64,000 nt of DNA from a bacterium (GCA_029565685.1 JAKQNR010000010.1:34404-98403), one strand, 5' to 3'; shown: positions 2,903-34,877, counted from the first letter of the stretch. Notes: a model not told the origin generated them from the letters alone. Made by a program: numbers and translations.

Positions 2903-5900
2903 ATGAGACGCTTGCTGAACCGGATCCCTCTGATGTTCTTCCTTTGCGCCCTGCACCCTCTCGCCCTGCCGGCCGGAACCACCGGCAAGATCGCCGGCCA
3001 AGTGGTGGATGCCGCCAGCAAGGAGGCTTTGCCGGGCGCGAACATTGTCATCGAGGGAACCATGATGGGCGCGGTCACAGATATCGACGGCCATTACGTG
3101 ATTCTCAATCTTCCCCCCGGCGCCTATGTCGTGACAGCCAAGATGATCGGATACACCGCCATGCGCATGGAGAACGTCAATGTCTCTATCGATCTGACAA
3201 CGACTCTGGACTTTAAGCTCTCCAGCACGGTGCTGAATCTCGGCGAATCGATCACGGTGCTGGCCGAGCGGCCGATGGTGGTCAAAGACCAGACCGCGAC
3301 CACCGCGGTGATGGGCGCTGAAAATATTCAAGCCCTGCCGGTCACCGAGGTCGCCGAAGCCATCGAACTGCAGGCCGGGCTTATCAGAGACGCAGGCGGC
3401 GGCCTGCACGTGCGTGGCGGTCGAAGCGGTGAGATGAGCTATTGGATCGACGGCATCCCGGTCACCGACGTCTATGACGGCTCCAGCGTGGTGGATGTCA
3501 ACAAAAACATGGTGCAGGAGCTGCAGGTCGTTTCCGGCGCCTTTAACGCGGAATACGGTCAGGCCATGTCCGGCATCGTCAATATCGCCACCAAGGAGGG
3601 CAGCAACAAATGGGGCGGCAGCCTCAGCGCTTATTTTGGCGATTTCCTCAGCCAACATGACAATATCTTTATGAACATCAAAGATATCAATCCAGCCGCA
3701 ATCCGCAATATCGACGCGAGCGTCCAGGGCCCGCTCCTAAAGGACAAGCTGTTCGTCTATGTGAACGGCCGTGCCATCCATTTCGACGGCTATCAATACG
3801 GACAACGCCGCTACACGCCAAGCGCGGTGACTGTGGCTGCGGAGGGCATCCCCGGCGCCTACCTGCGTCAATATATGCCGGAGTATCTGCCGCTGGCGAG
3901 AGAAGGTCGCAATGATACTTACGGCATCCCCTACGTGTTGGGCTCCAATGTGCACGCGGATTCGCAAGTGGTCGCGCAAAATTTTCCACAAAATTTTATC
4001 GGCAATGAGGATTCATTGTTTGCGGTGCTGTACAATCAATATCGTCAGGCTCATCAGGGCGGACGCGGCGATGATGCCTATGTCGCCATGAACTGGAACC
4101 GCAAGTATTACGCGCAGGGCAAAGTGATTTATAAATTGACGCCGAATGTCAAGATCGCCTATAACTTGATCTACGACGATGTTCACTATCAAGACTACAA
4201 TCGCGACTACAAGTATAATCCCGATGGGCAGGCGCAGCAATACCGCATCGGCCAGACGCATATCGCGCAGGTGACTCACACGCTGTCGCAGCGCACTTTC
4301 TATACCATGGGGATCTCTTATTTCGGCAAAGAATACCGCCGGCATGTCTACGAAGATGCCCATGACGCGCGTTATGTGCATCCGGATTTGAGCATTCAGA
4401 ATCCGTTCAGCTTTAAAAGCGGCGGCACTGATAACAGCCGTTTCCAGCGCAACACGACGACCGGCCTCTTCAAGTTCGATATCACCAGTCAGGTGACCAA
4501 CACCCACCAGTTCAAGGCAGGGTTGGAATTCCGCCAGCACAAGCTTTATCAGCGCGATATCACGCTGCGACCCATAGAAACGCAGACGCAGATGGATTTT
4601 ATCTTCAACAGCCCGTTTATCCAGACGCGCATCCTGCCCGACAGCACCATCTACGCCAGTGAATACACCCACAAGCCGACGGAATTTTCCGCCTATCTTC
4701 AGGACAAGATGGAATTTAAAAATTTCATCGTCAACCTCGGCGTACGCTTGGATTATTTCAAGCCGCAGGGGCGCATTCTCGCGGATGAGAGCGATCCCAG
4801 CATCTACAATCCCATCAAGCCGGAAAATCGATTCAAGGATTATGGCAGCGATGGCGTGGACAATACGTTTGATTCGAACGGCACAGAAGGCAACGGCATC
4901 TGGGATGTAGGCGAAGCAGCCGTCAGTCTGGCTGAACGGGAATCGTACTGGTACAAAGAAACCAGCACCAAGCTTAACATCAGTCCGCGCCTGGGCGTCT
5001 CCTTTCCCATCACCGATCGGGGTGTAATCCACTTTTCTTACGGTCATTTCTTTCAGGTGCCGCGTTTTGAATTGCTCTATCAGAATCCGGATTTCGAACT
5101 GGGCACAGGCACAGGCAACATCGGCGTCATCGGCAATGCCGACCTGGAGCCGGAACAGACCATCAGCGGCGAAATCGGCTTGCAGCAGCAGCTTTCAGAT
5201 GATATCGCCATGGGCTTAACCGGCTATTTTCGCGATATTCGCAATCTGGCCGGCACCCGCGCCGATGAAATCGTGTTGTTCGGCGGTTCAGCCCGGTACA
5301 ATAAGCTGGTCAACAGTGATTTCGGCTTTGTCAAAGGAGTCGTGTTTTCCCTCAGCAAGCGCTTTTCCGGCGGCCTGTCCGCCTCTATGGACTATACGTT
5401 GCAGCAGGCCAAAGGCAGCAATTCCGATCCGGAACAGGCGCGCAACGCGCTGGCGGGCGGGTCTCTGCCGGAGGTGCAATTGACGCCGTTGGATTGGGAT
5501 CAGCATCACACCGTCAATGCCTCGGTCTCCTATGCCGGTCGTTCCTGGGGGGGCAGTCTGATCGGCCAGTGGGGCAGCGGCCTGCCGTTCACGCCGCGCA
5601 GCTCCGAAGATATCACCTCGTTGTTGACCAACAGCCAACGCAAAATCGCCAGTCTCAACATCGACGCGCGCGCTTATAAGGATTTCCGCTTCGGTCCCGG
5701 CATGCTGAGCTTTTTCGTACGCATCCAGAACCTGCTGGATGCCCTCAATGAGATCAATGTCTACAACGATACCGGCCGGGCGGGCTATACCACGGATCTA
5801 CAAACGGCGCAGAAATCCAATCCTCCGGAAATATACAACAGCCTGGTAGAATGGTACACCAATGCGACGCATTACTCCGAACCGAGAAGAATCGAGGTGG

Positions 5901-5920
5901 GGGTGAATTATGTATTTTAA
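2903..5920 (+). CDS. TonB-dependent receptor-like outer-membrane barrel with carboxypeptidase-regulatory-like N-domain (SusC-like architecture)
   Basis: GGAG at 2892-2895 then ATG 2903 (the ORF-track start 2888 is TTG). Signal peptide, then N-domain GKIAGQVVDA..GANIVIEG..DGHYVILNLPPGAYVV. Plug-like NIQALPVTEVAEAIELQAGL..LHVRGGRSGEMSYWIDGIPV. Long barrel ending VGVNYVF. Confidence 0.85.
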   Translation: MRRLLNRIPLMFFLCALHPLALPAGTTGKIAGQVVDAASKEALPGANIVIEGTMMGAVTDIDGHYVILNLPPGAYVVTAKMIGYTAMRMENVNVSIDLTTTLDFKLSSTVLNLGESITVLAERPMVVKDQTATTAVMGAENIQALPVTEVAEAIELQAGLIRDAGGGLHVRGGRSGEMSYWIDGIPVTDVYDGSSVVDVNKNMVQELQVVSGAFNAEYGQAMSGIVNIATKEGSNKWGGSLSAYFGDFLSQHDNIFMNIKDINPAAIRNIDASVQGPLLKDKLFVYVNGRAIHFDGYQYGQRRYTPSAVTVAAEGIPGAYLRQYMPEYLPLAREGRNDTYGIPYVLGSNVHADSQVVAQNFPQNFIGNEDSLFAVLYNQYRQAHQGGRGDDAYVAMNWNRKYYAQGKVIYKLTPNVKIAYNLIYDDVHYQDYNRDYKYNPDGQAQQYRIGQTHIAQVTHTLSQRTFYTMGISYFGKEYRRHVYEDAHDARYVHPDLSIQNPFSFKSGGTDNSRFQRNTTTGLFKFDITSQVTNTHQFKAGLEFRQHKLYQRDITLRPIETQTQMDFIFNSPFIQTRILPDSTIYASEYTHKPTEFSAYLQDKMEFKNFIVNLGVRLDYFKPQGRILADESDPSIYNPIKPENRFKDYGSDGVDNTFDSNGTEGNGIWDVGEAAVSLAERESYWYKETSTKLNISPRLGVSFPITDRGVIHFSYGHFFQVPRFELLYQNPDFELGTGTGNIGVIGNADLEPEQTISGEIGLQQQLSDDIAMGLTGYFRDIRNLAGTRADEIVLFGGSARYNKLVNSDFGFVKGVVFSLSKRFSGGLSASMDYTLQQAKGSNSDPEQARNALAGGSLPEVQLTPLDWDQHHTVNASVSYAGRSWGGSLIGQWGSGLPFTPRSSEDITSLLTNSQRKIASLNIDARAYKDFRFGPGMLSFFVRIQNLLDALNEINVYNDTGRAGYTTDLQTAQKSNPPEIYNSLVEWYTNATHYSEPRRIEVGVNYVF

Positions 5921-5936
5921 CTTGGAGCCTTCGATC

Positions 5937-8900
5937 ATGCGCATCAAGAGGCGAACAGTAGTAACGACTTGCTTGCTTTTCATGCTGGCCGGCTCGCTGA
6001 GCGCGCAAAGCGGCCGCGAAAATCGCCGTGCTTCGATCATGCGGGGCAATCTGGTCAAAACGGTGTTTGGCAACTGGGGCGTCATCGGTCAGCCGGCCAA
6101 CAAAGGGGCGCGCGGCGCCTGGATCTATGAAAATAACGGCTATATCGGCGATGTCAGTCTGCTCGTGGGCGCGGAGGTGGAAAGCGGCGGCAAGACGTTT
6201 CATTCGGTCGTGGTCTGCCCGGTGGATCGCCCTACCCGCCAGCATGAGACTTCGCCTTCCGGCAAGTACTGGAGCTTTGAACCGATGACCGGCTATTTCA
6301 ATCCCAACCAGGAAGGGATCGCGCTCTACAGCGATCCGAATTCCTGGCCATCCCAGTGGCCGGACAAACTCCAGGATCCGGATGATCCGGGCTGGGGCGG
6401 TTCCTGGAACGGCTTTTTCGGCAAAACCACCACGGCGAGCGAGGAATGCTTTTTTATTATGGACGACAATAATGATGAAGAATTCAATGTTGCCACCAAT
6501 AACAAGTGGGGCGTAGCGTTCAAACCGGATGCCGCCAATCCACTGCGCAACGGCCTGGGATTGCAGGTGAAGGTGCGCGGCATGCAGTGGTCCGATTTTC
6601 TCGCCCAGGATTGCATCTTCTGGCTGTACGAAATCACCAACACCAGTACGACGGACTATTCCAAAGTGGCTTTCGGCATGTTGGTGGGAACCTATGTCGG
6701 CGTCACCGGCAGCGAAGGCACCCATCACGAGTATGACGACGACTATTCGTTTTTTGATGTTGAAAAGGATCTCACTTATACGGGCGATTTCGACGACAAT
6801 GCCACCAGCAACCCCCGCTGGACGGGGGATGTCGGCATCGTCGGTTATGCTTTCTTGGAAAGCCCGGGGAATTTGGTGGACGGCATCGACAACGACGGTG
6901 ATTCGCGGGAAACCTTTGGCGTCGTCAGCACCGCGCCCCTCTTTGTCGCTGAGGATTTTAATCCGCGCATCATCGCCGCGGGCAGTTCCATCGTGCTCAT
7001 CGATGAAAAATACAACCGCAGCGTTATGACGGCGCCGGCCAATGATTTTACCGTCACCACGCGCGGGGCCACCCTCACCATCAAACCGGGCGTCACCGAA
7101 CTGGCGGAGGGCAACGTCATTCTCCGCGACGGCCGGGAAACGGTCAATCCCAACGCTTATGACGGCATCGATAACGATCTAGATGGATTGATCGATGAAA
7201 ATTTCTATTTGCATTATCGCCAGCTGCGCCGCGATCAAACCGGCAAGGTCTTGATCGACAAGCTGGCGCCGGTGGCTTATAAGGACTATGTGCGCGGCAT
7301 CGGTTTAAACGATCCGATGATCGATGAAGGCCGCAGCGACGGCATCGATAACGACCATGACTGGAATGCGGAATTCGATGATGTCGGCGCCGATGGCGTC
7401 GAAGGCACCAACGATCGCGGCGAGAGCGATGGCATGCCCACGGCGGGCGAACCCAACTTTGACCAGACCGACGTGGACGAATCGGATCAGATCGGCTTGA
7501 CCAGCTTTGAATATTTCACCCCGGCCAACGAGTTTTCCATGGCCGATGACGAGGAGCTGTGGCAAAGGATGGCGCCCGGCTTTTTCAAGGTCCCGGCCTC
7601 CATCGTCAACAACAAACCGGAGCGCGGCGAAGACGGCGATTTCATCTACGGCTCCGGCTATTTCCCCCTGCGCGCCGGCGAAACTCAACGCTTCTCCTTG
7701 GCCTTGGTCTACGGCGAAGGCGGCGGCCCCCAGGTCGACACCGTCGACCTGTTGCGCAATCGCGAAACCGTGCAAAAAATCTACGACAGCGATTATCGCT
7801 TCCCGCCGGCGCCGCTCAAGCCGACTCTCAAGGCGGTGGCAGGAGACCGTCAGGTCACGCTGTACTGGGACCGTCGTGCCGAATCCTCCTTTGATCCCGT
7901 GCTGAAGGAATACGATTTCGAAGGCTATAAAATTTATAAAGCCACCGATCAAAACTTTAATGATGTCTTCAGCATCACCGATGCCAGCGGGAACCCCATC
8001 TATTACAAACCCTTGGCCCAATTTGACCTTAAAAACGACCGCAAGGGTTATTTCCGCGCTCAGCAGGATCTCTATCAACAAAGCCGAGGCGCCTCCTTCT
8101 ATCTGGGCGATGACACCGGTCTGCAGCACAGCTTTGTCGATCGGGATGTGGAAAACGGCAAAAGGTACTTTTATGCGGTGGTGGCCTATGATCGGGGCAA
8201 CGAAGGCAGCGATATTTTCCCCAAAGAGAACGATAAGCGCATCGATCTTTTGCCCAGCGGCGAAGTCAATGTCTTTCAAAATACGGTCGTCGTCATTCCC
8301 AATGCGGAAGTGGCCGGCTTTGTGCCGCCGCCGAACAGCGTCAAGCTGGAAGGTCCGCCTACTATCGGCACCGGCGACGTTTATTACACAGTGGTGGACC
8401 ACAGCGCTGTCAAAGGCCATACCTACGAGGTAGAGTTCTGGGACACTTCCAACGACGGCATCGACAACGATGACAGCAAAAAAGCGGATGCCGAGGACAT
8501 CAACGAGTGGTTGGCGCCGGTAACCACCTCCTATTCCGTTCTCGATGTCACAGGCGTAACCGAATCTTTTATCGCCCATGACACGGTCTTTGTCCGGCTG
8601 CCGCATCAGCATGTGGCAGCCGCTACGGTCGTGGTCAGCGATCAGAGCGGCCAGACCATCCCGGCCGGCAAATATGTCGTGGAAGCCTTTGCGGGCAAGA
8701 TACGCGGCGCCGCGCCCGGCGATCTGCGCTACGGGGAACGCTACACAATCCGATACCAATACTATCCCGTTTATAAAAGCACACATATTCTCGGCAGTCC
8801 CTTTGCCGCGGAAACCAAGGACAGCGATATTTTCGATGGAGTGCAATTATCCTTCAACAACCAATGGGCGGTTAAGCTCGATAATCAGAAAAGCCGCTGG

Positions 8901-9677
8901 TCCAATGCGGATAAAGCGCTGGCCCTCAATCTGTATCTGTATGAAGGCGTCATCGGCTCGGACAAACTCAAAGGCCTGGCTAAGCCGAGCGATTACCGGG
9001 TAGAGTTCGCCGACATGGTGGTGGACACCACCTTGCAGGTCCCACGCTGGGGTCTGGTCGGCGTGCCGGTGAAATTCAGAGTCTGGAACAGCACGGACCG
9101 CCGCTATATTGATTTTGTTTTTCTCGATCTCAACGCCGACGATCAGCTGAGCCCAGCCGATGAAATATACTTTTTCGAGCCCGATGCCCACGGCGCGGTA
9201 ACGCTGACCTGGTCGCTGAATGTCATCGGCGAACAATCTTATACCTATGGCAAAGGGGACACCCTTTTTCTCTACACCTCCAAGCCGTTCCGCCGCGGAG
9301 ATGGGTACACCTTTCAAACGCAGCTGGCTTCGGTGGATCAGGTTGTGGCGGCTACAGATCTGGACCGGGTCAAAGTCGTGCCGAATCCCTACGTCTCGGC
9401 CACAGCGCACGAATTGCCGTTGCCGCCGGCCATCACCAGCGGCCGAGGCGAGCGTAAAATCGATTTTATTCACCTGCCGACCAATGCGCAAATCCATATC
9501 TTCACCACCCGCGGAGAACACGTGGTGACGTTGCAGCATGATGATAATCCTTTTGACGGCTCGGTATCCTGGAACCTGAAGACCAAGGAAAATCTGGATG
9601 TGGCCGCCGGCGTCTACTTTTATGTTATTGACTCCAGCGTTGGACAGAAAAAGGGCAAAATTGCCATTATCAAATAA
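5937..9677 (+). CDS. Very large secreted protein with acidic DGIDND Ca-binding-type motifs, an FN3-like module and a T9SS-CTD-like C-terminus; function unknown
   Basis: GGAG at 5924-5927, ATG 5937, signal peptide MRIKRRTVVTTCLLFMLAGSLSAQS. Four DGIDND motifs lie between about nt 6879 and 7499 plus one further downstream. FN3-like PPAPLKPTLKAVAGDRQVTLYWD..EGYKIYKA. The tail ..IHIFTTRGEHVVTL..AAGVYFYVIDSSVGQKKGKIAIIK aligns with the two CTDs downstream. Confidence 0.85.
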   Translation: MRIKRRTVVTTCLLFMLAGSLSAQSGRENRRASIMRGNLVKTVFGNWGVIGQPANKGARGAWIYENNGYIGDVSLLVGAEVESGGKTFHSVVVCPVDRPTRQHETSPSGKYWSFEPMTGYFNPNQEGIALYSDPNSWPSQWPDKLQDPDDPGWGGSWNGFFGKTTTASEECFFIMDDNNDEEFNVATNNKWGVAFKPDAANPLRNGLGLQVKVRGMQWSDFLAQDCIFWLYEITNTSTTDYSKVAFGMLVGTYVGVTGSEGTHHEYDDDYSFFDVEKDLTYTGDFDDNATSNPRWTGDVGIVGYAFLESPGNLVDGIDNDGDSRETFGVVSTAPLFVAEDFNPRIIAAGSSIVLIDEKYNRSVMTAPANDFTVTTRGATLTIKPGVTELAEGNVILRDGRETVNPNAYDGIDNDLDGLIDENFYLHYRQLRRDQTGKVLIDKLAPVAYKDYVRGIGLNDPMIDEGRSDGIDNDHDWNAEFDDVGADGVEGTNDRGESDGMPTAGEPNFDQTDVDESDQIGLTSFEYFTPANEFSMADDEELWQRMAPGFFKVPASIVNNKPERGEDGDFIYGSGYFPLRAGETQRFSLALVYGEGGGPQVDTVDLLRNRETVQKIYDSDYRFPPAPLKPTLKAVAGDRQVTLYWDRRAESSFDPVLKEYDFEGYKIYKATDQNFNDVFSITDASGNPIYYKPLAQFDLKNDRKGYFRAQQDLYQQSRGASFYLGDDTGLQHSFVDRDVENGKRYFYAVVAYDRGNEGSDIFPKENDKRIDLLPSGEVNVFQNTVVVIPNAEVAGFVPPPNSVKLEGPPTIGTGDVYYTVVDHSAVKGHTYEVEFWDTSNDGIDNDDSKKADAEDINEWLAPVTTSYSVLDVTGVTESFIAHDTVFVRLPHQHVAAATVVVSDQSGQTIPAGKYVVEAFAGKIRGAAPGDLRYGERYTIRYQYYPVYKSTHILGSPFAAETKDSDIFDGVQLSFNNQWAVKLDNQKSRWSNADKALALNLYLYEGVIGSDKLKGLAKPSDYRVEFADMVVDTTLQVPRWGLVGVPVKFRVWNSTDRRYIDFVFLDLNADDQLSPADEIYFFEPDAHGAVTLTWSLNVIGEQSYTYGKGDTLFLYTSKPFRRGDGYTFQTQLASVDQVVAATDLDRVKVVPNPYVSATAHELPLPPAITSGRGERKIDFIHLPTNAQIHIFTTRGEHVVTLQHDDNPFDGSVSWNLKTKENLDVAAGVYFYVIDSSVGQKKGKIAIIK

Positions 9678-9686
9678 GGAAAAGTC

Positions 9687-10727
9687 ATGGACAATAAAAT
9701 GATCCGCTGCCAAGGATTTTATTCGTTCCTTGTTCTTGTACTGCTGAACATGGCCGGCCTCTTTTCCCCCCTGACGGCGCAAACTAAGGTGGGCACCACG
9801 GCTGTGCCGTTTCTGGGCGTCAGCGTAGGACCGCGTGCAACAGCCATGGGCGGAGCCTTTGCGGCCGTCTCGACAGATGCCTCGTCATTGTATTACAACC
9901 CCGGCGGCATCGCCCAATTGCCCAACTCGCAAATCCAACTTGTCCATACGAATTGGTTGGTGGACAGCAAGTTGAACTGGTTTGGCTTTGTACTCAACTT
10001 GGATGGCTCCAACGCCATCGGCATCAGCTATACGCAGCTGGGCTATGGAGAGGAACAGGTGACCACTGTGCTGCAGCCGGAAGGAACGGGTGAAATCTGG
10101 CAGGCCAGCGATCTGGCGGTCGGCCTTTCATACGCCCGCCGGTTGACGGATCGCTTCTCTATCGGCGGCAGCGGTAAATATATCCAGCAAAAGCTGTGGA
10201 ACGAATCTGCCAGCGCGTTTGCTCTGGATATCGGCCTGCTTTTCATCACGCCCTTCAAGGATATGCGGCTCGGCATGAGCATCAGCAATTTCGGCTCCGA
10301 TGTTCGACATGAAGGCCGGGATTTGCTGCAGAGGGTGGATTTGGATCCGAATTCCCTGGGCAATAACCAGAATATCGTCGCCAACCTCAAGACCGAAAGC
10401 TGGCCGTTGCCGCTTTTTTTCCGCGTCGGACTGGCGTTGGACGCGATCAAAGCGCAACACTATCGCCTGACTCTGGCCGCGGATGCCCTGCGCCCCAGCG
10501 ATAACGATGAAATCATCAATGCGGGAGCCGAATTCGCCTTCAGCGAGCTGGCCTTTTTCCGCGCCGGCTACAAATCCCTGTTCAGAGAGGACAGCGAAGA
10601 AGGCCCCACCTTTGGCGTCGGCGTGATGTACAAGGTCAGCGGCGTCGGCTATCATTTTGATTATACTTTTGCCGATTTTGGGCTGTTCGAAAACATTCAA
10701 ATGTTTTCATTAGGAATCAGTTTTTAA
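9687..10727 (+). CDS. PorV/PorQ-family (UPF0164/FadL-like) outer-membrane barrel
   Basis: Starts 9 nt after the previous stop. Signal peptide, then family-typical motif TTAVPFLGVSVGPRATAMGGAFAAVSTDASSLYYNPGGIA; ends ..FSLGISF. Confidence 0.75.
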   Translation: MDNKMIRCQGFYSFLVLVLLNMAGLFSPLTAQTKVGTTAVPFLGVSVGPRATAMGGAFAAVSTDASSLYYNPGGIAQLPNSQIQLVHTNWLVDSKLNWFGFVLNLDGSNAIGISYTQLGYGEEQVTTVLQPEGTGEIWQASDLAVGLSYARRLTDRFSIGGSGKYIQQKLWNESASAFALDIGLLFITPFKDMRLGMSISNFGSDVRHEGRDLLQRVDLDPNSLGNNQNIVANLKTESWPLPLFFRVGLALDAIKAQHYRLTLAADALRPSDNDEIINAGAEFAFSELAFFRAGYKSLFREDSEEGPTFGVGVMYKVSGVGYHFDYTFADFGLFENIQMFSLGISF

Positions 10728-10822
10728 AGGATCGTTTTAAGAGATGGAAGGAGGTGCTTCCGCAAAGAGGTACACGCACTTTTTCAAATCCATTTAATTA
10801 TCCATTCAATTTGGAGGAAGGT

Positions 10823-12871
10823 ATGAAAAAGTCTCTATCGTTTTTGCTGTTTATTCTGCTGTTGGTCGCAGCAGTGCAAGCTCAGACGGTTAAAGTCACA
10901 TTTCACGTGAACACCGCGGCGGTGCCCGACACGTTGGGGGCTTTGTCGACGGTTCAGGTGCGCGGTTCGGGAGGACCGTTGACCTGGGGCGGCGACTCGC
11001 CGGTATTTTTGCACCATGTATCAGGCGATTACTGGAAGGGCACGGCGGAATTCCCCGCGGGCGCTGCCATCCAGTTCAAATTCTACACCAACACCCACGA
11101 CAGCGTCTGGTCTGGAGCAGAGTGGGAGCATCAGGGCTGGGAGGGCAACACAAACCTGGCCAGCGGCAATCGAGAGCTGGTGGTGCCGTCGACCGACACC
11201 GAGCTGAATTTGATGTTTGTCAACGGTTGGAAGGAAAATGTGGAATTGTACGAGACGCCGTACAAGGCCGACGACGGTCATTTCGTCCTGTGGGTTCGCG
11301 TGAACATGCAGGGATTCGAGGATTTCAATCCGGCGCTGCACAAGGTCGGCGTGCGCGGTTCGAACATGTCGGATTGGGGTCAGACCGGCAACATCAGCTG
11401 GGGCCAGACGATGTTGTTGAGTCCGGAGAACGACCATGTGAACGCTGGCAGCCGTCAGTATAGCGGCAAGAATTTTTACAGCGGCGCCATCCAGGTTCCA
11501 AATCAATACGCAACGGCCGGGGTCAAGTTCAAGGTGGTGGTGCACAACATAGATGCGCCGTTGGATGAGGATTGGGGCAAGATGGTGCGCAATCCGAGTC
11601 GTGAAGATGAGGTGAAAACAGCAGGCAACGACACAACGCTGCATTGGTTTTGGTTTGACAACATGAGCCCGGCGACCGTGAGCCACGCGGATGAGGTGGT
11701 GGTGACTTTCCAGGCGAATTTGTCCAAGGCGATCGCGAACAAAGGCTTTGCCTTCGGCGACACGCTGTTGGTGCGCTCAGGGTACTTTGGCACCGCCAAA
11801 GAGGTGCGCACCAAGACCATGGTTCGTCAGGGGTTCACGGCGGTCTACAGCGCCACCGACACAGTGGTGACGACGATCGGCGGAAAATTGAATTATCAGT
11901 TTTACAAAATTAAAAATGGCGTGGAATACCGCGAGATATTCTACAATTTCTATTACGAGGGAGACACGGCCGGACAGGCGGAACGTCGAGAGGGCGAGGT
12001 GAGCTCGGCGACCACAACCATCGCCGATGTGGTGGACAGCGAGTCGGATCTGCATCGCATGCCGTTGTTCCGCAACACCGCGGTGGTCAAGCAGGATGTC
12101 CTGGTGACTTTGACCTGCGATGTGCGGCCGGCGATCTTTCAGGTGATGGCAGGCTCGACGCTGGACGACATCCAGGGCAATCTGGACGTGACCACCGCGG
12201 CGCAGATTCTGCAGATGGGCGTGGCGGTGAACGGACCCTTTACCGGCAATTGGGACACCTGGGGCGCCGGCTTGATGGAATCGCCGCTGCACAAAATGTG
12301 GGATGACGGCACGCACGGGGATGCGGCAGCCGGCGACAGCATCTATACCATTCAAATTCAGTTGAACCGGGACAGCCTGGACGTAATTGGCCAGGAGTTC
12401 AAGTTCGGCATCGGCGGCGGGGATAACGAAGGCGGCTATGGCAACAACCACATCGAAAACGTGGACGACAGCCAGTCCACCTTCACCATCAACGCCCAGT
12501 TCGGCAGCATCGATCCGGTCTTTTATAGCGCCTGGAACTTTGACACGCGCAAAAATGTCACCGCCGTGGAGCGGACCGGCAACTGGATTCCGACCGAGTT
12601 CTCGATTGCACAGAATTACCCGAATCCATTCAATCCCAGCACTGTGATCGCTTACAATCTGGCGAAACCCGCCGAGGTCAAGCTGATGGTCTACAATCTT
12701 CTCGGCAACAGAGTCGCCACGCTGGTGAACAGCCGGCAGACGGCGGGCAGTTACAAGGTGACTTGGAATGCCATGGATGATTGGGGTCGACCGGTCAGCG
12801 CCGGCATCTATTTCTATCGCATCGAAGCCGGCGAAAACGTCAAAATGCTCAAGATGATGCTGATCAAATAA
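10823..12871 (+). CDS. Secreted multi-CBM-like (starch-binding-like beta-sandwich x4) protein with T9SS C-terminal sorting domain; no catalytic domain recognised
   Basis: GGAGG then ATG 10823; signal peptide MKKSLSFLLFILLLVAAVQAQ. Repeated modules of the type TVKVTFHVN..VQVRGSGGPLTWGG..YWKGTAEFPAGAAIQFKFY. C-terminus NYPNPFNPSTVIAYNL..VKLMVYNLLGNRVATL..AGIYFYRIEAGENVKMLKMMLIK. Confidence 0.85.
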   Translation: MKKSLSFLLFILLLVAAVQAQTVKVTFHVNTAAVPDTLGALSTVQVRGSGGPLTWGGDSPVFLHHVSGDYWKGTAEFPAGAAIQFKFYTNTHDSVWSGAEWEHQGWEGNTNLASGNRELVVPSTDTELNLMFVNGWKENVELYETPYKADDGHFVLWVRVNMQGFEDFNPALHKVGVRGSNMSDWGQTGNISWGQTMLLSPENDHVNAGSRQYSGKNFYSGAIQVPNQYATAGVKFKVVVHNIDAPLDEDWGKMVRNPSREDEVKTAGNDTTLHWFWFDNMSPATVSHADEVVVTFQANLSKAIANKGFAFGDTLLVRSGYFGTAKEVRTKTMVRQGFTAVYSATDTVVTTIGGKLNYQFYKIKNGVEYREIFYNFYYEGDTAGQAERREGEVSSATTTIADVVDSESDLHRMPLFRNTAVVKQDVLVTLTCDVRPAIFQVMAGSTLDDIQGNLDVTTAAQILQMGVAVNGPFTGNWDTWGAGLMESPLHKMWDDGTHGDAAAGDSIYTIQIQLNRDSLDVIGQEFKFGIGGGDNEGGYGNNHIENVDDSQSTFTINAQFGSIDPVFYSAWNFDTRKNVTAVERTGNWIPTEFSIAQNYPNPFNPSTVIAYNLAKPAEVKLMVYNLLGNRVATLVNSRQTAGSYKVTWNAMDDWGRPVSAGIYFYRIEAGENVKMLKMMLIK

Positions 12872-12932
12872 AGATCAACCTCCCTCCCATCTCCGAGGAA
12901 GAAGAGCAACTCGAATAAGCACAGCAAACAGT

Positions 12933-12975
12933 AAAGCGGGTATCGCCTCTTTGGCGCTGCCCGCTTTTATTTTTG
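12933..12975. terminator. Rho-independent terminator between convergent genes (better U-tract on + strand)
   Basis: AAAGCGGG..(loop/bulge)..CCCGCTTT stem followed by TATTTTT. Confidence 0.6.
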
Positions 12976-13047
12976 CCTACGAAAAAACAGGGCCGACCGA
13001 AACGACAGCATCATTTGCGGATCCAGCGGGCCGGTGCAGATCGGTCT

Positions 13048-15828
13048 TTAACGCAACAGCGTCATTTTGCCGTGCAGAATCCGATCCGCTGTTTCAAGCC
13101 GATAAAAATACAAAGCACTGGCAACCCGGTGACCGTTTTCCGCCGTGCCCTCCCACCTGAATTCATGAATTCCGTCCTGCTTCCATCCCTGCCACAGTGT
13201 TTTCACCAGACGTCCCTGAAGATTCAAGATATCCAGCTTCACTCGCATGGGCCGGTCGAGCTGCAAGCGCAGCACCGTCGTACTGTTAAAAGGATTGGGA
13301 TAGGCTGAAAGCAAGATGGGGTCTTGCGGCACCGGCAGAATTTCCACGGCCGTCGGCAGGCCGACAACATCCGGTCTTTGATCCATATAGAGGCGGAATT
13401 CTCCGGCTCGTAGGAAAATCGGCTGGTGGACGGAATTCACGTCGAGACTGTCGCGATTGAACACGTCGTACCAGCGGCCGGTCTTTTGAAAAAGCGGATT
13501 GACGTAATTGGCGAACACGTTAAAATTGCCGAGAACCACCACCTGGGTCAGGGAATCCTGCAGATGGATCCGTTTCATGCCGCTGCCGAGGTCGAGCTGA
13601 AAATCTTCGCTGTGAAAAACCCGGTATTTAGCGCGCAATCGGTTCAAGGCGGCCATGATGTCGTAAACGGCGCGGCGCTGCGGATCCTGATAATAATCCC
13701 AGCGGATCGGTTTGCGGCCGAGCCGGCCATTGTATTCGATCGTATAGTCATAGCCCAGTTCGCCGAATTGCCAAATCATCTTGGGCCCGGGTATAGTCAG
13801 AAAAAACGCCGCAGCCAGCTGGATGCGCTGGAGGGCCGTGGCCAGGTCTGTGATGCGGTAATCGCCCTGGCTGTTGCCATACTGCAAATTTTTATACATC
13901 AGGCGTTCTTCATCATGACTCTCCATATAGCCGACCACATGCGGCTTGGACCAACCACGAGTCGTGTGCGCAATCCAGGAAAAATTCGATTTGCCCTGGT
14001 CGTGATAGCCCATGGTGGCCTCGTTGTAATTGTAATTGCCATTGCCCCACAGCATCATGCCATAATCCGCCAGCTCTTTTTCTTCTTGATTGGATGCGAA
14101 ATGCTCGAGTATGACATAAGCGGACGAATCCACGGTCCAGATTTTATCGGCGATGCGTTTGAGAATGCGGATGCGAGCGGGATCGTAGCTCGAGCCATCG
14201 CCGGGCGTATTGGTAAAGCCTTTGGTGAAATCCAGCCTGAAGCCATCTACGTGAAATTCACGCAGCCAATACTCGAGCACGCGATCGACAAAGGCCTCGG
14301 TGGCGGGACTGAGATGGTTAAAATCATATCCCCAGCTGTAAACCGGATTAGGTGATTTTTTATTGAACCACGGATTGAGCTCCATCTGGTCCGCGTACAA
14401 CCGCACCAGCGGACACTGACCATACGCATGGTTCAGCACGATGTCCTGGATCACCGCCAGACCGCGCTGGTGAGCCGTGTCGATAAAGCCTTTGAGCTGC
14501 GCTTCATCGCCATAGTATTTGTCCGGCGCAAAGTAAAAGGAAGGGTTATACCCCCAGCTATCGTTGCCTTCGAATTCGTTGAACGGCATGATCTCCAGAG
14601 CGTTAATGCCCAGGCGGTGGAAATAAGCCAAGGAATCGGTAAGGCCGGCAAAGGTGTGCTCGTCGAGAAAATCGCGCAGCAGCAACTCATAGACGACCAG
14701 CTCCTCTTTGGCAGGACGGACAAACTTCTCATCGGTCCAGTCAAACAACGGAGGATTGGTCATCAAGGTGGAAACGATTTCGCGCGTTTTCTCTTTGGGA
14801 TAGGGTTTCAAGTTTGTGAAGACACGATCGGAAATCGCCGAATCGTTCCAGGGATCGAGCACGAGCCGGGTGTAGGGATCAGCGATGCGCAATCGGCCGT
14901 CGACGAGATATTGAAAGGCATACTGCTTTCCCGGCTCGAGATCGTGGAGCGGCAGCCAGAAACGCGAACTGTCCGGCGTTCGATGCATAAAATACGCCGG
15001 CAGCAAGCGCCAGTCATTGAATTCGCCGATGACATAACAAAAGGACTTGTGCGGCGCCATGAGACTCAGAACGACGTTGTGATCATCGATGCGGGTGATG
15101 CCGTCCTGTACGCCCGGCGGCAGGTTCTGAAAGGTCATCGGAGGATTGACGATGATCTCAAATGCCAGCGTTTTCTGATCACCCGCGGAATTCCGGACCC
15201 GGGCAATAAGCCGTTGGGCGCCGACATCCTGGACGGAATATTTCCATACCAGCGTATCGGCCATGGTGGCCGCCAGGCACTGATCTTCGCGCCATAGCGT
15301 CAGGCTGTCGCCGTTTTGTTTGACGATGCGAATCCTGACTGAATCGCCCTGGTCGGCAAAGCTTAAAGAGTCCGGCGGTTCGATGCGCACCAGGTTCAGG
15401 CCCGGCAAGTAGACCGGCGTAAAGATGTCGCCGTTGTCCGCCGTCTTGCCCGTGCGCGTTGCGGCGGCGTTGCGAAAGACAAAGGCCAACTGCAGAATGG
15501 TCTCTGACAACGGCACGTTATAGTAGGATTGAATGTGAAAGCGTATTTTCCATAAATCCGTTCCAACTTTCTCCATCCTGGTCTCGGCCGTATTCACACC
15601 CCAATCGGTCTTTACATAACGCCATGCACCCGGATGGCTGCTGAGATTGGTGATGACTCCGGTATGAACATAGACTTCGTTGGCATTGACCAGCCCCCGG
15701 CTGCCTTCCTGGGCATTGAACCAGATGGTGACGGTGTCATATCGCGTGGGAAAAAGCGGCGCCCAGGTCACCACCTGACCGAAAGTCGCCGTTGCGATGA
15801 CGAGGCTTAGGGTAAAAGCTCTTAGCAT
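13048..15828 (-). CDS. GH13-family alpha-amylase/alpha-glucan hydrolase with N-terminal carbohydrate-binding-like region and T9SS C-terminal sorting domain
   Basis: GH13 conserved regions DIVLNHA, GFRLDFTKGF, ILEHF and YMESHDEERL. GAGG RBS then ATG 15828 (the track start 15843 is GTG); signal peptide MLRAFTLSLVIATATFGQ. CTD AYPNPFNSTTVLRL..VKLDILNLQGRLVKTL..ALYFYRLETADRILHGKMTLLR. Confidence 0.9.
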   Translation of the reverse strand: MLRAFTLSLVIATATFGQVVTWAPLFPTRYDTVTIWFNAQEGSRGLVNANEVYVHTGVITNLSSHPGAWRYVKTDWGVNTAETRMEKVGTDLWKIRFHIQSYYNVPLSETILQLAFVFRNAAATRTGKTADNGDIFTPVYLPGLNLVRIEPPDSLSFADQGDSVRIRIVKQNGDSLTLWREDQCLAATMADTLVWKYSVQDVGAQRLIARVRNSAGDQKTLAFEIIVNPPMTFQNLPPGVQDGITRIDDHNVVLSLMAPHKSFCYVIGEFNDWRLLPAYFMHRTPDSSRFWLPLHDLEPGKQYAFQYLVDGRLRIADPYTRLVLDPWNDSAISDRVFTNLKPYPKEKTREIVSTLMTNPPLFDWTDEKFVRPAKEELVVYELLLRDFLDEHTFAGLTDSLAYFHRLGINALEIMPFNEFEGNDSWGYNPSFYFAPDKYYGDEAQLKGFIDTAHQRGLAVIQDIVLNHAYGQCPLVRLYADQMELNPWFNKKSPNPVYSWGYDFNHLSPATEAFVDRVLEYWLREFHVDGFRLDFTKGFTNTPGDGSSYDPARIRILKRIADKIWTVDSSAYVILEHFASNQEEKELADYGMMLWGNGNYNYNEATMGYHDQGKSNFSWIAHTTRGWSKPHVVGYMESHDEERLMYKNLQYGNSQGDYRITDLATALQRIQLAAAFFLTIPGPKMIWQFGELGYDYTIEYNGRLGRKPIRWDYYQDPQRRAVYDIMAALNRLRAKYRVFHSEDFQLDLGSGMKRIHLQDSLTQVVVLGNFNVFANYVNPLFQKTGRWYDVFNRDSLDVNSVHQPIFLRAGEFRLYMDQRPDVVGLPTAVEILPVPQDPILLSAYPNPFNSTTVLRLQLDRPMRVKLDILNLQGRLVKTLWQGWKQDGIHEFRWEGTAENGHRVASALYFYRLETADRILHGKMTLLR

Positions 15829-16033
15829 ACAGTACCTCAACACTAACGCTGCGGTGGATTACTCATTGAGCATGGGGAAGCAAAAGACGGATGGGCCGGT
15901 GGGCGGACAAGACATTTGAATTTATGGGTGGCGAAATCATTCTGCCGGTCAAGGGCGCTGAGACCAACCCTGCAACCTTTTTCAGGCCATTGGCCGTATC
16001 GGACGATCCCTTCACTCCCCTGTCATCAGAAAA

Positions 16034-17121: not shown

Positions 17122-18273
17122 ATGAAAAACAGCAACGTTTTGTTGGGATTGTTTATTGCCGGCGGACTGATAAGCACGGATGTATCGAGCCAGCAGACTT
17201 TTAACGGGCTGAACATGAACCTGGGCAACCTGTCGCGCTTGTCCCATGCGCAAACCCGTTCCATCAGCGCGGAGAATTTCAGCGGAGAAAAAGGCAAAGG
17301 CGGCATGGCCATGGACGGCACCGGCGCCAGGGCAGCCCGGGAACTGGGCCAGAGCTGGAAAATATCTCCGTCGATCAAGATTGAAGCAAAAAAGCTGGTC
17401 ACGCTGGCGGACATCCAGGGGCCAGGCGCCATCCAACACATCTGGATGACGCCATCAGGCCACTGGCGCTATTCTATTATTCGTTGTTACTGGGACGGCG
17501 AGACCGAACCCTCCATCGAAGCACCGGTGGGTGATTTCTTTGCCTGTGGCTGGGGTCAGTACAGTCAAATCAACTCGTTGCCGATTTGCGTCAATCCCGG
17601 CAGCGCGTTCAATTGCTACTGGGAAATGCCTTTCCGTAAATCATGCCGCATCACCTTTGAAAACATCGACGAAGAACCCATGGTCCTGTATTATCAGATC
17701 GACTACACCCTGACCGAGGTGCCGCAGGACGCCGCCTATTTGCACTGCCAGTTTCGCCGCAGCAATCCCCTGCCCTACAAAACCGATTATGTGATCCTTG
17801 ACGACGTCAAAGGCTGGGGCCAGTATGTCGGCGTTTATATGGCCTGGGGGGTGAACAACAACGGTTGGTGGGGCGAAGGCGAAATCAAGTTCTTCATCGA
17901 CGGCGATGAGAAATTCCCCACCATCTGCGGTACGGGCACAGAGGATTATTTCTGTGGATCATACGGTTTCGAAAATCCTGAAACCAAGCAGTATCAAACC
18001 TACACTACGCCCTACAGCGGCCTGTCGCAGGTGATCAAGCCGGACGGCGTGTACAACTCGCAAATGCGTTTTGGTCTGTATCGCTGGCACATCATGGATC
18101 CCATCCGTTTCGAAAAGGATTTAAAGGTCACGATGCAAGCCCTGGGCTGGCGCAGCGGCGGCCGCTATCTGCCCTTGCAGGATGACATCAGCTCCACCGT
18201 GTTCTGGTATCAGACCGAACCGCATGCCAAATTTCCGAAATTGCCGGATAAAGATTATCTGGAAATACGCTAG
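17122..18273 (+). CDS. DUF2961 / GH172-family glycoside hydrolase, secreted
   Basis: AAGGAG RBS and a signal peptide. Family-like motifs ISAENFSGEKGKGGMA, IQGPGAIQHIWMT and YWDGETEPSIEAPVGDFFACGWG. Confidence 0.75.
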   Translation: MKNSNVLLGLFIAGGLISTDVSSQQTFNGLNMNLGNLSRLSHAQTRSISAENFSGEKGKGGMAMDGTGARAARELGQSWKISPSIKIEAKKLVTLADIQGPGAIQHIWMTPSGHWRYSIIRCYWDGETEPSIEAPVGDFFACGWGQYSQINSLPICVNPGSAFNCYWEMPFRKSCRITFENIDEEPMVLYYQIDYTLTEVPQDAAYLHCQFRRSNPLPYKTDYVILDDVKGWGQYVGVYMAWGVNNNGWWGEGEIKFFIDGDEKFPTICGTGTEDYFCGSYGFENPETKQYQTYTTPYSGLSQVIKPDGVYNSQMRFGLYRWHIMDPIRFEKDLKVTMQALGWRSGGRYLPLQDDISSTVFWYQTEPHAKFPKLPDKDYLEIR

Positions 18274-18519
18274 CTCGACTCGATGTAAAAGTTCCACCGT
18301 TCCGCGTAACTGTTGCGCGCTAAAGATGTGATTCATCATTGTGTCGGCACCGCAAAGGCCTAAACTATCATTTCACCAATGCGCTATTCCGTTTTCCTCC
18401 ATGGAAACAAGCTTACCTTCAAACACGGCGCTTTTGCGGCGGGCATTCCACTGCAAAATTCAACCCGATCTGGATGGAGCAGAAAAATAAATTCAAGTTC
18501 TTTTAAAAAAGGTCTGCCC

Positions 18520-21500
18520 ATGAAAAACCTATTCCGCATCGCACGAACACTCGTGTGCCTATTCTTGTTCATCTGCGGTTGCCAGGTGAAAACCCTAAAA
18601 GACCTGGAAACAGGATTTCTACATCCGCCGGCAAAGGCACGACCCTGGGTGTACTGGTTCTGGCTGAACGGCAACATCACCCGTCAGGGCATCACGGCCG
18701 ATCTGGAAGCCATGAAACGAGTAGGCATCGGCGGCGTGCTCATCATGGAAGTGGATCAGGGAACTCCGGCCGGTCCGGTATCCTTTGCCGGCAAAGAGTG
18801 GCGCGAGCTATTTGCCTTTGTGTGTCAGGAAGCCCATCGTTTAGGACTGGAGGTAAACATGAACAACGATGCCGGCTGGTGCGGCAGCGGCGGCCCATGG
18901 ATCACGCCTGACCTGGCCATGCAAAAAGTCGTTTTCAGTGAAACCAACCTGGAAGACGCGCAACAGGTCGATGTCGTTCTGCCCCAGCCCCTGGCGACAG
19001 CCGACTATTACCGCGACATCGCGGTGCTGGCCTTTCCAACACCGGCGAAAGGCGCACGCCTTGACGTGCTGCCCGGCAAGACAGCCGCCGTGACGCAGCA
19101 CTTTGCGTCACCCGCCTCCTTTCCAGACATTCCCAAAGAACAGACTGTGCTCCGCGACCAAGTGCTGAACCTCACCGGACGAATGGACGCTGCCGGTCGT
19201 TTGCAGTGGCAGGCGCCGCCAGGGAGATGGACCGTCTTGCGATTCGGCCACACGCTCACCGGCAAGGACAATCATCCTGCGCCCCTTTCAGGTCGTGGCC
19301 TCGAATCCGACAAGCTGAGTCGGGAGGCCACGGATGCCATGTTCAACGGCCTGATGGGCAAACTCATCGCCGAGGTCAAACCTCTGGCCGGCAAGACGCT
19401 GGTATCCACGCACATCGACAGCTGGGAAACCGGCTCGCAAAACTGGACGCCTAAATTTCGTGAGGAATTTCGACAACGCCGCGGCTATGATCTGCTGCCC
19501 TTTCTGCCGGTACTGGCAGGACGTGTGGTGGAAAGCGTCGCTGTGACCGAACGGTTCTTGTGGGATGTGCGCCAGACCGTGTCCGATCTGCTCATCGAAA
19601 ACTATGCCGCCCGGTTTCGCACCCTGGCGCATCAATATGGCTTGCGACTCTCCATCGAAGCCTATGACGATGCGCCGTGCGATGAAATGGCCTACGCCGG
19701 CCGAGCAGACGAACCCATGGCCGAGTTCTGGTCCTGGGGCAACCAAACGGCCTACAGCTGCACGGAGATGACTTCAGCGGCGCATACCTACGGCAAACAG
19801 ATCATCGGCGCCGAAGCCTTTACCGCTACCGACGGCGAACGATGGCTGCTTCATCCCGCCAACGTCAAGGCCTTGGGCGACTGGGCGTTTTGCGAAGGCA
19901 TCAACCGGTTTGTATTTCACCGTTATGCGTTGCAGCCCTGGCGCGATTATGCGCCGGGCATGTCGATGGGACCGTGGGGCTTGCATTATGAACGTACGCA
20001 AACCTGGTGGGAGCAATCCAAACCGTGGCATGAATATCTCAGCCGCTGCCAATTCCTGCTGCAGCAAGGGCATTTCGTTGCCGACATTTGTTATCTGCAG
20101 CCGGAAGGATCGCCGCGTCGGTTCTCGCCCACTCTGCCCGGGTATGCCGGCAACACGCCGGAACGCGCTCGCTATAACTTTGACGGCTGCACGGCAGAGG
20201 TGTTGCTCAGTCGCATAAAGGTGGAAAACGGCTGCCTGGTCCTGCCCGAGGGCGCTAGGTATCGCCTGTTGGTGTTGCCGCAGATGCAAACCATGACGCC
20301 CTTGCTGTTGGTTAAAATCAAGGAACTGGTTCAAGCCGGTGCGACGGTGCTCGGTCCGCCGCCATCCGCTTCTCCCAGTCTTAGCGATTATCCGCTATGC
20401 GATAAAGAGGTGCAAAAACTTGCCGCCGAGTTGTGGGGCGAAACCGCCGGTGAATCCGCTGGCGACGGGCGTCGTGTCGGCAAAGGTCGCGTCATCTGGG
20501 ACGACGCTTTCACCTCCTCCATTTTTAAGGCGGAATGGCTGAGCCCGCTGAATGGGGCGAAATGGATCTGGTTCGCTGAAGGCAACCCGGCGGAAGCCGC
20601 GGCTGTGGGCAAATGCTATTTCCGTCGTCGCTTTGTCCTGAATGCAAACCAACGCATCGCTTCGAGTAAAATATTAATTACTGCGGACAACCGTTTCACT
20701 TTATGGTTGAACGATCGCCTCGTCGGATCCGGCGCCAATGCCACGGAGGCGTATAAATATGACGTTACAAGCTGGCTCAAGCCCGGCGAAAATTGGTTGA
20801 CTGTGGAAGGCGAGAATGCGCACGATTATGCAAATCCGGCCGCTCTGATCGCCAAGCTGGCAATCAACTATCGCAATGGCGATTCCCTGGTCGTGCTGTC
20901 CGATTCGCAATGGACAAGTACGCGCCAGGTCCGGCCGCAATGGCGTACAGATAAAAACGCTCCTGGCTGGAAGCCGGCCATGGAGATCGGCCCTCTGGGA
21001 ATGAAACCGTTTCCTGTTCCAGATGTATGGCTCAAAACTCCGATCTATGTCTATCCGAAATTTGACGCCATTGCCGGCGTGCTTCGGCAAATGGGCGTGG
21101 CGCCGGACTTTGCCGCGGATTCATCGTTCCGCTATGTCCACCGTCGCATCGACGACATGGATCTTTATTTTGTCTCTAATCGCACGAACGCCTGGCATGG
21201 GGCCAACTGTACTTTCCGCGTCAGCGGCAAAACGCCGGAGCTGTGGAATCCCCTTACCGGCGAGATCAGGCCGCAGCTGCTCTTTAAGGAGCAAAACGGT
21301 CAGACCACGATGCCGCTATGGCTGGAACCCAGTGGCTCTACATTCGTCCTCTTTCGCACTAAAGGCAAGGCGCGCATCAAATCCATCGAGCGGGACGGGC
21401 TCGCCGTGTTGCCGGATATCACTCCTCCATCCTGCGAGTTGTCGGTCGATGAAACGCACAAGACGATATTGCGGGTATGGAAGTCCGGGCACTATGAAAT

Positions 21501-22110: not shown

Positions 22111-22126
22111 TGCGCACAGTCGGACT

Positions 22127-24082: not shown

Positions 24083-24237
24083 AAGGGACCGTTTGGTTTT
24101 TAATGATTGCTATAAAGATTGATTTACCTGAAATGGAATCGGGCGGTGCATCCGGGGGGTGGCAGCCAGTCCTCTTCCTGCTCTCCTTGCATCAAAATCC
24201 ATCCAGCAACGTCGTCACTTATACCATGAAAGTAAAT

Positions 24238-34875: not shown

Positions 34876-34877
34876 TC

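Follow-up and report, generated by a model that had tools for sequence, protein, structure and literature searches.

The subject of this study is a 64,000-nt stretch of bacterial DNA (GCA_029565685.1 JAKQNR010000010.1:34404-98403), referred to below as the window, in which all positions are counted from the first letter of the stretch. It contains three closely packed genes encoding a TonB-dependent receptor, a giant protein and a PorV-like barrel, and this trio is, in our view, probably a single nutrient-uptake module of the outer membrane. The receptor gene (2903-5920, 1005 aa) begins with an ATG start codon with GGAG 7 nt upstream, the giant gene (5937-9677, 1246 aa) with an ATG with GGAG 9 nt upstream, and the gene of the PorV/PorQ-family barrel (9687-10727, 346 aa) with an ATG preceded by AAGGA, likewise within 7-9 nt. 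All three genes lie on the + strand, with intergenic gaps of 16 nt between receptor and giant and 9 nt between giant and barrel, so that the reading of the open reading frames (ORFs) bore out what an earlier note on this DNA had described as a packed same-strand trio with its own ribosome site for each gene. Its assignment of the three products was upheld by hidden Markov model searches, which returned a TonB-dependent receptor for the first, no family for the second and the PorV/PorQ family for the third. The 620 nt upstream of the receptor (2283-2902) are gene-free, and no operator-like palindrome, promoter consensus or Rfam element was seen there; scans for promoters, terminators and inverted repeats in and around the trio found nothing beyond the expectation from shuffled sequence.

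The product of the first gene is a TonB-dependent receptor. Its N-terminus carries a signal peptide, and in Pfam it comprises a CarboxypepD_reg/CarbopepD_reg_2 domain (residues 30-115), a Plug domain (128-224) and an OMP_b-brl_4 barrel (229-733), the last two passing their cutoffs with 34.8 bits against 23.9 and 66.8 bits against 30, respectively. A TonB-box-like motif, ITVLAERP, lies at about residues 116-123 between the N-domain and the Plug, as recognised by eye and with no model score. The receptor had been described as SusC-like, which holds for its N-terminal domain architecture but not for family membership: the SusC/RagA model TIGR04056 reached 56.9 bits against a cutoff of 368.25 and aligned over model positions 2-208 alone, a part that corresponds to the N-domain and plug, and the PDB sequence matches consisted solely of the plugs of CirA/FepA-type receptors, with SusC chains absent among them. 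On these two grounds the receptor was ruled out as a member of the SusC/RagA family. Since non-SusC receptors have the same architecture, the combination of CarboxypepD_reg, Plug and barrel is insufficient for a SusC call.

The third gene product matched NF033709, the model of the PorV/PorQ family, over its full length (residues 37-346) with 225 bits against a cutoff of 90, in agreement with its earlier reading as a PorV-like paralogue. It also passed the Pfam PorV model (46.7 bits, cutoff 27) and matched PorV in the PDB (6h3i_F, E 1.9e-7). It stayed below the equivalog cutoffs of PorV (NF033710, 86 vs 250 bits), PorQ (NF033711, 93 vs 220) and PorV2 (NF052325, 71.6 vs 325) and, as judged by these scores, represents a separate clade of the PorV/PorQ family, distinct from PorV, PorQ and PorV2.

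The giant protein starts with a type I signal peptide (MRIKRRTVVTTCLLFMLAGSLSA/QSG, ending ...SLSA/QSG) without a lipobox cysteine. It has no relative in Pfam (also at E <= 5), NCBIfam or the PDB beyond sub-threshold matches of its C-terminal sorting domain (CTD); a profile of 23 sequences gave no match against the PDB chains, and the SusD Pfam models found no match even at E <= 5. The suppositions that it lacks SusD-like features and stands outside the characterised families agree with these results, and its assignment to SusD/RagB was rejected on the missing Pfam match, the missing lipobox cysteine and the almost all-beta models described below. More than 2255 homologues were matched among 5.8 billion proteins; the best 120 of them are 53-95% identical over the full length, are 'hypothetical' or nameless, and have as hosts KSB1, Ignavibacteria, 'Bacteroidetes bacterium' metagenome-assembled genomes (MAGs) and one Gemmatimonadota-labelled MAG. 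When 1.84 billion representatives clustered at 50% identity were searched exhaustively with HMMER, 2315 clusters matched at E <= 0.001, of which 502 remained at E <= 1e-30; their lengths are about 900 to 1600 aa, and the best-shared core lies at about residues 460-840. By these searches, the giant protein founds a large uncharacterised family.

Three parts of the giant protein were distinguished by means of the conservation profile of its subfamilies A and B, AlphaFold2 models, Foldseek and, for the C-terminus, hhalign. The core (residues 24-830; 6006-8426, + strand) is kept in both subfamilies, the following region of beta-sandwich domains (residues 840-1140; 8454-9356, + strand) is variable, and the last 105 residues, which belong to the CTD (residues 1141-1246; 9357-9674, + strand), are strongly kept. 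Within the variable region, a stretch of approximately 100 aa (about residues 860-960) is found with the starch-type subfamily, whereas subfamily B lacks it, and the region with this stretch may be regarded as a candidate specificity region. Invariance across both subfamilies is seen mostly at D, E, G and W residues of DGIDND-type loops; the alignment of 80 sequences contains neither an invariant Cys nor an invariant His. Four such D-rich loops lie in the N-terminal half and are possible Ca sites, and FN3/Ig-like beta domains follow from about residue 630. The labels 'Ca-binding' and 'FN3' given to the protein by the earlier note are based on the D-rich motifs recognised by eye and the FN3/Ig-like Foldseek matches, and not on any family match.

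The AlphaFold2 model of residues 24-640, built from the 80-sequence alignment of both subfamilies, has a pLDDT of 84.8 and a pTM of 0.87 and is an almost all-beta structure with a beta-supersandwich. Its Foldseek matches in the PDB are weak (TM 0.2-0.29, probability up to 1.0), and nearly all of these neighbours are carbohydrate-active enzymes (CAZymes) with an N-terminal beta-supersandwich, namely dextran dextrinase (9ju0, GH15-like), GH94 phosphorylases, GH149, GH161, GH116 and PL26. A catalytic (alpha/alpha)6 domain was not present in the model of the N-terminal half. The models thus suggest a non-catalytic, possibly Ca-stabilised carbohydrate-related fold, and an enzymatic function of the giant is disfavoured, as the predicted similarity is limited to the non-catalytic beta-supersandwich of the glycoside hydrolase and polysaccharide lyase enzymes, at low TM. 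Another model, of residues 24-1140, from 29 close homologues (pLDDT 61.8) left the N-terminal half unfolded and was used for the C-terminal half only, which it shows as FN3/Ig-like beta-sandwiches at a pLDDT of 80-90; Foldseek returned generic FN3/Ig arrays for this model.

The C-terminus of the giant resembles the sorting domains by which proteins are directed to T9SS, the type IX secretion system. It begins with VVPNPY and ends at the very C-terminus with GVYFY...GKIAIIK, as is typical of T9SS sorting domains with their PNP and GxY...K-x-x-x-K motifs, and between the two motifs it carries a near-invariant, family-specific insert, ELPLPPxITSGRGER. An hhalign comparison of the giant CTD profile with a profile of bona fide cargo CTDs, taken from CBM20 proteins and amylases encoded at the same loci, gave a probability of 97% and an E-value of 8.5e-11 over 65 columns; on this alignment, the giant C-terminus is homologous to T9SS sorting domains. 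The T9SS-type CTD proposed earlier stands as far as this homology is concerned but does not pass the curated models: the domain fails TIGR04183, PF18962 and PF13585 by their cutoffs, subfamily B scores lower still, and a few homologues of the giant have a precomputed PF13585 match. A weak NCBIfam match of the giant to the C-terminus of PorZ spans the CTD only. Between orthologues, identities of CTD and body are 70/58% for the giant, 51/48% for the CBM20 protein and 36/47% for the amylase, and the CTD is also better kept than the body in 4/4 tandem paralogue pairs of the giant. Since the CTD is better conserved than the body, a retained binding module is likelier than a signal that is cut off. 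The excess is modest, with a CTD/body conservation ratio of 1.20 for the giant vs 1.08 for the CBM20 protein, and the conservation of the CTD therefore counts as supporting evidence only.

For the comparison of gene order, one genome per GTDB species was scanned, which yielded 499 stretches encoding relatives of the giant, and the best 80 loci were compared by tblastn and ORF clustering, adjacency being counted only in loci with enough flank. The receptor lies directly upstream of the giant in 52/52 loci, the PorV-like gene follows downstream of the giant in 72/72, and the CBM20/CTD protein comes after the PorV-like gene in 48/49. The common order is LacI, receptor, giant, PorV-like, CBM20/CTD, and then GH13 amylase and/or Na+/solute symporter (SSF) or peptidyl-prolyl isomerase (PPIase); the LacI-family regulator occupies the position of the gene-free region upstream of the trio in 31 loci, and GH13 and SSF genes are found nearby. 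Among the 80 loci, host labels are Ignavibacteria/Ignavibacteriota in 15, Marinimicrobia/Fidelibacterota in 11, KSB1 in 6 and 'Bacteroidetes/Bacteroidota bacterium' in 15, while most others are generic or automatic. Linkage in 52/52 and 72/72 loci excludes chance adjacency, and the synteny of the triplet, which the earlier note had set as a check on its reading, is thus borne out across KSB1, Ignavibacteriota and Marinimicrobia genomes. Judged by this linkage, the trio is inherited as a unit, and it is met again within nutrient-use loci of hundreds of KSB1, Ignavibacteria and Marinimicrobia genomes.

The trio also occurs in paralogous forms. In an Ignavibacteriota locus (L064), a second giant (37% identical) with its own PorV-like gene (44%) lies just upstream of the starch-type trio, and when this second giant served as the query, a second subfamily came to light, whose members have about 1120-1155 aa and belong to KSB1, Ignavibacteria and Calditrichaeota. 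Two further forms emerged from a third search: one has about 1590 aa and a faint Reg_prop match and occurs as tandem trios, and the other, of about 1090 aa, is found in great abundance in marine Marinimicrobia. Paralogous trios are 37-50% identical to the starch-type. Twelve of their contexts were read, and a CarboxypepD_reg-type TonB-dependent receptor adjoins the giant in 12/12; a PorV-like gene is present in all twelve, the sole exception being the second of two tandem trios in L084, whose giant is without one of its own. Starch-type and other trios occur in the same MAGs, as in GCA_964387285.1 (L003, L088) and GCA_016930535.1 (L018, L085), and tandem trios were found on four contigs. In L088 (5883-13375) the order is receptor, PorV-like, giant, which differs from the usual receptor, giant, PorV-like, and the order of the trio is therefore not absolutely fixed.

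The genes around these trios point to various substrates. The xylan-type context of L082 comprises GH43+CBM6+CTD, GH10+FlgD_ig, an arabinofuranosidase and XylR, and the galactoside-type context of L090 comprises LacI, melibiase+CBM6/35+CTD and GH2. Further neighbours are GntR, GH115_C and MFS with two tandem trios (L081), LacI, CE2 and beta-helix+CTD (L085), a heparinase II/III-type lyase and CBM9 (L086), malectin+CTD, GH39+CTD, GH5 and an ABC importer (L087), GH38, BNR/sortilin, SSF and AraC (L088), and GH31 and GH42 (L089). The KSB1 contig L093 (1-23402) carries two tandem trios with NamZ (an exo-N-acetylmuramidase), Amidase_2 and SLT/LysM, a setting that hints at the uptake of peptidoglycan fragments. 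L092 has its trio next to amino-acid permease, aminotransferase and peptidase genes and not next to CAZymes, L091 (giant P0344) has tandem trios with unknown proteins, and L084 has tandem trios with a two-component sensor. The L092 giant (P0476), which belongs to the subgroup of about 1090 aa, was found in 112 index blocks, Tara among them, and further clusters comprise 200-650 sequences each. Such a spread of paralogous trios across CAZyme loci is as expected of a SusCD-like modular system. The glycan module suggested earlier is thus supported by the CAZyme loci of many trios but is not a glycan-only one, given the peptidoglycan-recycling and amino-acid/peptidase neighbours.

The members of the trio have diverged in parallel. 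For 20 trios, the identity matrices correlate with r 0.90 for receptor-giant, 0.83 for receptor-PorV and 0.71 for giant-PorV; with the non-starch trios only, r is 0.82-0.93, and nearest neighbours mostly agree. Because linked genes share their descent, this correlation shows duplication and divergence as a unit but does not demonstrate physical contact. In L081, the tandem trios (stretches 10001-14405 and 17405-21845) do not differ in a single nucleotide from the last 1053 nt of the giant gene through the spacer to the end of the PorV-like gene, and the 5' two-thirds of the two giants have 51-76% amino acid identity and the receptors 64%. The identical stretch could stem either from gene conversion that recently affected the C-terminus/PorV unit or from an artefact of MAG assembly.

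The flanks of the trio in the window include genes for sugar and starch use. Two ABC permeases (BPD_transp_1 in Pfam; 411-2282, + strand) are likely an inner-membrane sugar importer, and a partial ORF in front of them (2-403) has a faint SBP_bac_8 match only. The permeases gave no tblastn matches in the 80 related loci, so this flank is not conserved; relatives usually carry the LacI regulator on the permease side and the SSF symporter downstream. On the other side follows a protein of 682 aa with CBM20 and a T9SS type A CTD (10823-12871, + strand; CBM_20, Por_Secre_tail and TIGR04183, 38 bits vs 23), which by analogy is likely a surface binder of alpha-glucans with a SusE/F-like role. In the 95%-identical relatives L001 and L002 it has about 1271 aa, with a tandem duplication of the first ~555 codons (CBM20 and middle domain), and the size classes of about 680 and 1250 aa recur over the 80 loci, reminiscent of SusE vs SusF. 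A GH13 alpha-amylase identified with Pfam (13048-15843, - strand), whose N-domain is DUF4961-like and whose C-terminal sorting domain is of the FlgD_ig type, has homologues in 26/80 related loci, and a SusG-like role is proposed for it. The CAZyme genes at the locus are thus CBM20 and GH13; there is no susC/susD pair, and none of the window proteins scanned matched the SusD family. The locus is therefore a CAZyme gene cluster with a TonB-dependent receptor and not a polysaccharide utilisation locus (PUL) in the strict sense of a susC/susD pair.

Further away, a second glycan-related cluster without a trio (17122-26780) comprises a DUF2961 protein (17122-18273), a 1243-aa GH106 rhamnosidase (18379-22110), in which sugar-binding domains of the GH2 type occur, and a DUF6259 protein (24462-26780). 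A single ORF at 32944-34902 on the - strand encodes a fusion of homocysteine S-methyltransferase and methylenetetrahydrofolate reductase (652 aa). An unusual fusion protein of 1047 aa is encoded on the same strand at 34878-38021: it joins a peptidase-like head (Peptidase_MA_2), beta-propeller repeats of the PD40/DPPIV type and, at the C-terminus, an outer-membrane barrel of the Omp85 type. The remaining window is chromosomal housekeeping, with G6PD/OpcA, TamA/TamB, MiaB-like enzymes and L,D-transpeptidases, and neither Rfam families nor tRNAs were found in the 64 kb.

We consider it fairly probable that the trio works as one outer-membrane nutrient-uptake module, here for alpha-glucans, and is a functional analogue of SusC/SusD assembled from non-homologous parts, with the giant exported by type IX secretion and tethered by its dedicated PorV-like barrel. 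We infer that the giant depends on the T9SS, retains its CTD and binds a ligand. With its type I signal peptide and no lipid anchor, it would cross the inner membrane via Sec and then be exported by type IX secretion through its CTD, which would be kept and remain attached to the cognate barrel of the PorV/PorQ family from the adjacent gene, providing a tether at the surface. The core (residues 24-830) would associate with the TonB-dependent receptor in a substrate-capture or lid role, as SusD does for SusC. Malto-oligosaccharides would be freed from starch by the CTD-bearing GH13 amylase (SusG role), held by the CBM20 protein (SusE/F role) and captured by the core together with the variable beta-sandwich region; the receptor would then take them over for TonB-powered import, and ABC or symporter systems would carry them across the inner membrane. 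Type IX export and the barrel anchor would in this way replace the surface-lipoprotein route of Bacteroidota SusD. Such a route is proposed because SusD-type lids need surface-lipoprotein export, which most non-Bacteroidota diderms are suggested to lack (Price et al., bioRxiv 10.1101/2023.03.17.533168); in keeping with this, few susCD genes are reported from the CAZyme clusters of Ignavibacteriales (PMC10576277).

Several observations weigh against this proposal. The contact of the giant with the receptor or with the PorV-like barrel is something that we infer, and the correlation of the identity matrices is partly explained by the shared descent of linked genes. The giant CTD lies under both curated cutoffs (TIGR04183 18.7 vs 23 bits, CHU_C 23.8 vs 27), and the 64-kb window contains none of the T9SS core genes. 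In Foldseek, the N-terminal half shows weak similarity (TM 0.2-0.29), a known carbohydrate-binding module was not detected in the giant, and 3/12 of the non-starch contexts are free of CAZymes. Finally, the giant is 50-77% identical across phyla, which is far above the usual conservation of SusD, and a structural or machine role therefore fits at least as well as ligand binding.

In a different reading, the giant and the PorV-like barrel are a surface-anchored pair that acts as a polymer-binding adhesin, a scaffold or a novel extracellular enzyme; it would share its regulation with the receptor but have no physical coupling to it, and the receptor would import products independently, as the glycan receptors of Xanthomonas or Caulobacter do. 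The pairing of cargo and barrel is an established theme of the T9SS, the receptor is nearer to classical lid-less TonB-dependent receptors than to SusC, and the arrangement is not rigid, as seen in the order of L088 and the L084 giant without its own PorV-like gene. L081 can be read in both directions: the identical 3' third of the giant with the PorV-like gene, next to a diverged 5' part and receptor, would make the giant C-terminus and PorV a separable unit, but the N-terminal two-thirds of the giant diverged together with the receptor. Against this reading stand the receptor, found directly upstream both in 52/52 loci and throughout the paralogous contexts that were read, at distances of some tens of bases, and the receptor-giant matrices, whose correlation is the highest of all pairs (r 0.90-0.93); we regard it as plausible but unlikely.

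It is improbable that the giant and the PorV-like barrel are instead a locus-specific branch of T9SS sorting, similar to PorU/PorZ with PorV/PorQ, which would shuttle, process or attach the CBM20 and amylase cargo. The neighbouring proteins do have CTDs, the high conservation of the giant would suit a machine component, and porU and porV are presumably adjacent in the genome of Porphyromonas gingivalis. However, the weak match to the PorZ C-terminus, which could be taken in its favour, is confined to the CTD, the giant has no invariant Cys/His dyad, some trios have no CTD cargo nearby, and there are dozens of paralogues, several per genome, each with a receptor and a substrate-specific locus. 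A PorU-like sortase was rejected as a candidate, as the giant neither matches the PorU sortase model NF033707 nor contains an invariant Cys or His. Very improbable is a receptor that works outwards and exports or assembles the giant in the manner of Oar, which in Myxococcus xanthus reportedly plays a role in PopC secretion: Oar-type receptors share the architecture of CarboxypepD_reg, Plug and large barrel, but the giant has a T9SS-type sorting domain of its own, and the regulators, hydrolases and inner-membrane importers in the loci are those of typical catabolic uptake systems.

Among the known systems close to the nutrient-uptake module proposed here are SusC/SusD and RagA/RagB, with which it shares a TonB-dependent barrel with a CarboxypepD_reg-like N-domain followed by the gene for a large exported partner, many paralogues per genome, each in a substrate-specific locus, and the company of a regulator, of inner-membrane importers and of binders and hydrolases at the surface, which are CBM20 and GH13 here; like RagAB, it is also found with non-glycan substrate contexts. 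In contrast, the receptor fails the SusC/RagA model (57 vs 368 bits), the partner is a non-homologous, nearly all-beta protein of about 1,250 aa with a T9SS-type C-terminal domain and no lipobox, whereas SusD is an alpha-helical tetratricopeptide repeat protein of about 550 aa, a third obligatory gene encodes the PorV-like barrel, and the hosts are KSB1, Ignavibacteriota, Calditrichota and Marinimicrobia and not Bacteroidota proper. The alternate lids of Bacteroides (BtuG, XusB, DUF4625, DUF4876 and DUF4374) resemble the trio in combining a non-SusC receptor with an adjacent non-SusD surface partner of unknown family that was recognised by conserved proximity (bioRxiv 10.1101/2023.03.17.533168). 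However, they are small lipoproteins for small substrates and nearly confined to Bacteroidota, while the partner in the trio is a giant T9SS-type cargo protein with its own barrel in loci for polymers.

As in PorZ-PorQ, PorU-PorV and SprB-SprF, a large CTD protein and a PorV-superfamily barrel dedicated to it are encoded side by side. PorZ retains its CTD for binding to PorQ, the CTD of PorU stays bound to PorV, and type B cargo is anchored by gene-clustered PorP/SprF barrels, for example SprB by SprF (PMC10202324); the unusually conserved CTD of the trio likewise fits retention over cleavage. The trio differs in that its barrel belongs to the PorV/PorQ family and not to PorP/SprF, its CTD, with the family-specific insert, stands closer to type A/FlgD_ig-like domains, and the pair always occurs with a TonB-dependent receptor in catabolic loci and not with a gliding or attachment complex. 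The CUT loci of Xanthomonas and MalA of Caulobacter also combine a non-SusC receptor, a sugar locus, a LacI-type regulator and an inner-membrane transporter, but a conserved giant surface partner and a PorV-like barrel are absent there.

Full-text literature searches gave no account of a module of receptor, giant and PorV-like barrel and no paper in which PorV-like proteins are linked with these phyla or with TonB-dependent receptors; neither the T9SS nor Ignavibacteria come up in a review of bacterial glycoside transporters from September 2026. A 'sus operon' has been described in Melioribacter roseus, a cultured member of the Ignavibacteriota (Mros0764-0758), in which Mros0761-0759, between amylase genes, were named 'SusC, SusD, SusE' (PMC3534657). 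These three might be a trio of receptor, giant and PorV-like barrel under borrowed names, and the module could then be studied in a cultured organism. A TonB-dependent transporter with a surface partner and the pairing of cargo with a PorV-like barrel are known separately; the family of the giant protein is new. SusC/SusD pairs serve as the marker for finding and counting PULs, and phyla without them are for this reason scored as poor in PULs.

More tentatively, and with slightly more doubt than belief, it may be proposed that KSB1, Ignavibacteriota, Calditrichota and Marinimicrobia, including the abundant marine SAR406, use this three-component outer-membrane machine, of a class not recognised before, as their general route of polymer import; its evolution would have run parallel to that of SusCD, type IX secretion taking the place of surface-lipoprotein export. 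If the nutrient-uptake module is as proposed, the trio would be a new marker by which the genomes of several uncultured or little-studied phyla, important in sediments, digesters and the deep ocean, could be searched for nutrient-uptake loci, and a role would be assigned to a large protein family that is now without annotation. The uses of type IX secretion and PorV-like barrels would extend from secretion and attachment to nutrient import, and the construction of surface-exposed partners of transporters in diderms without lipoprotein export of the Bacteroidota type would become a testable question.

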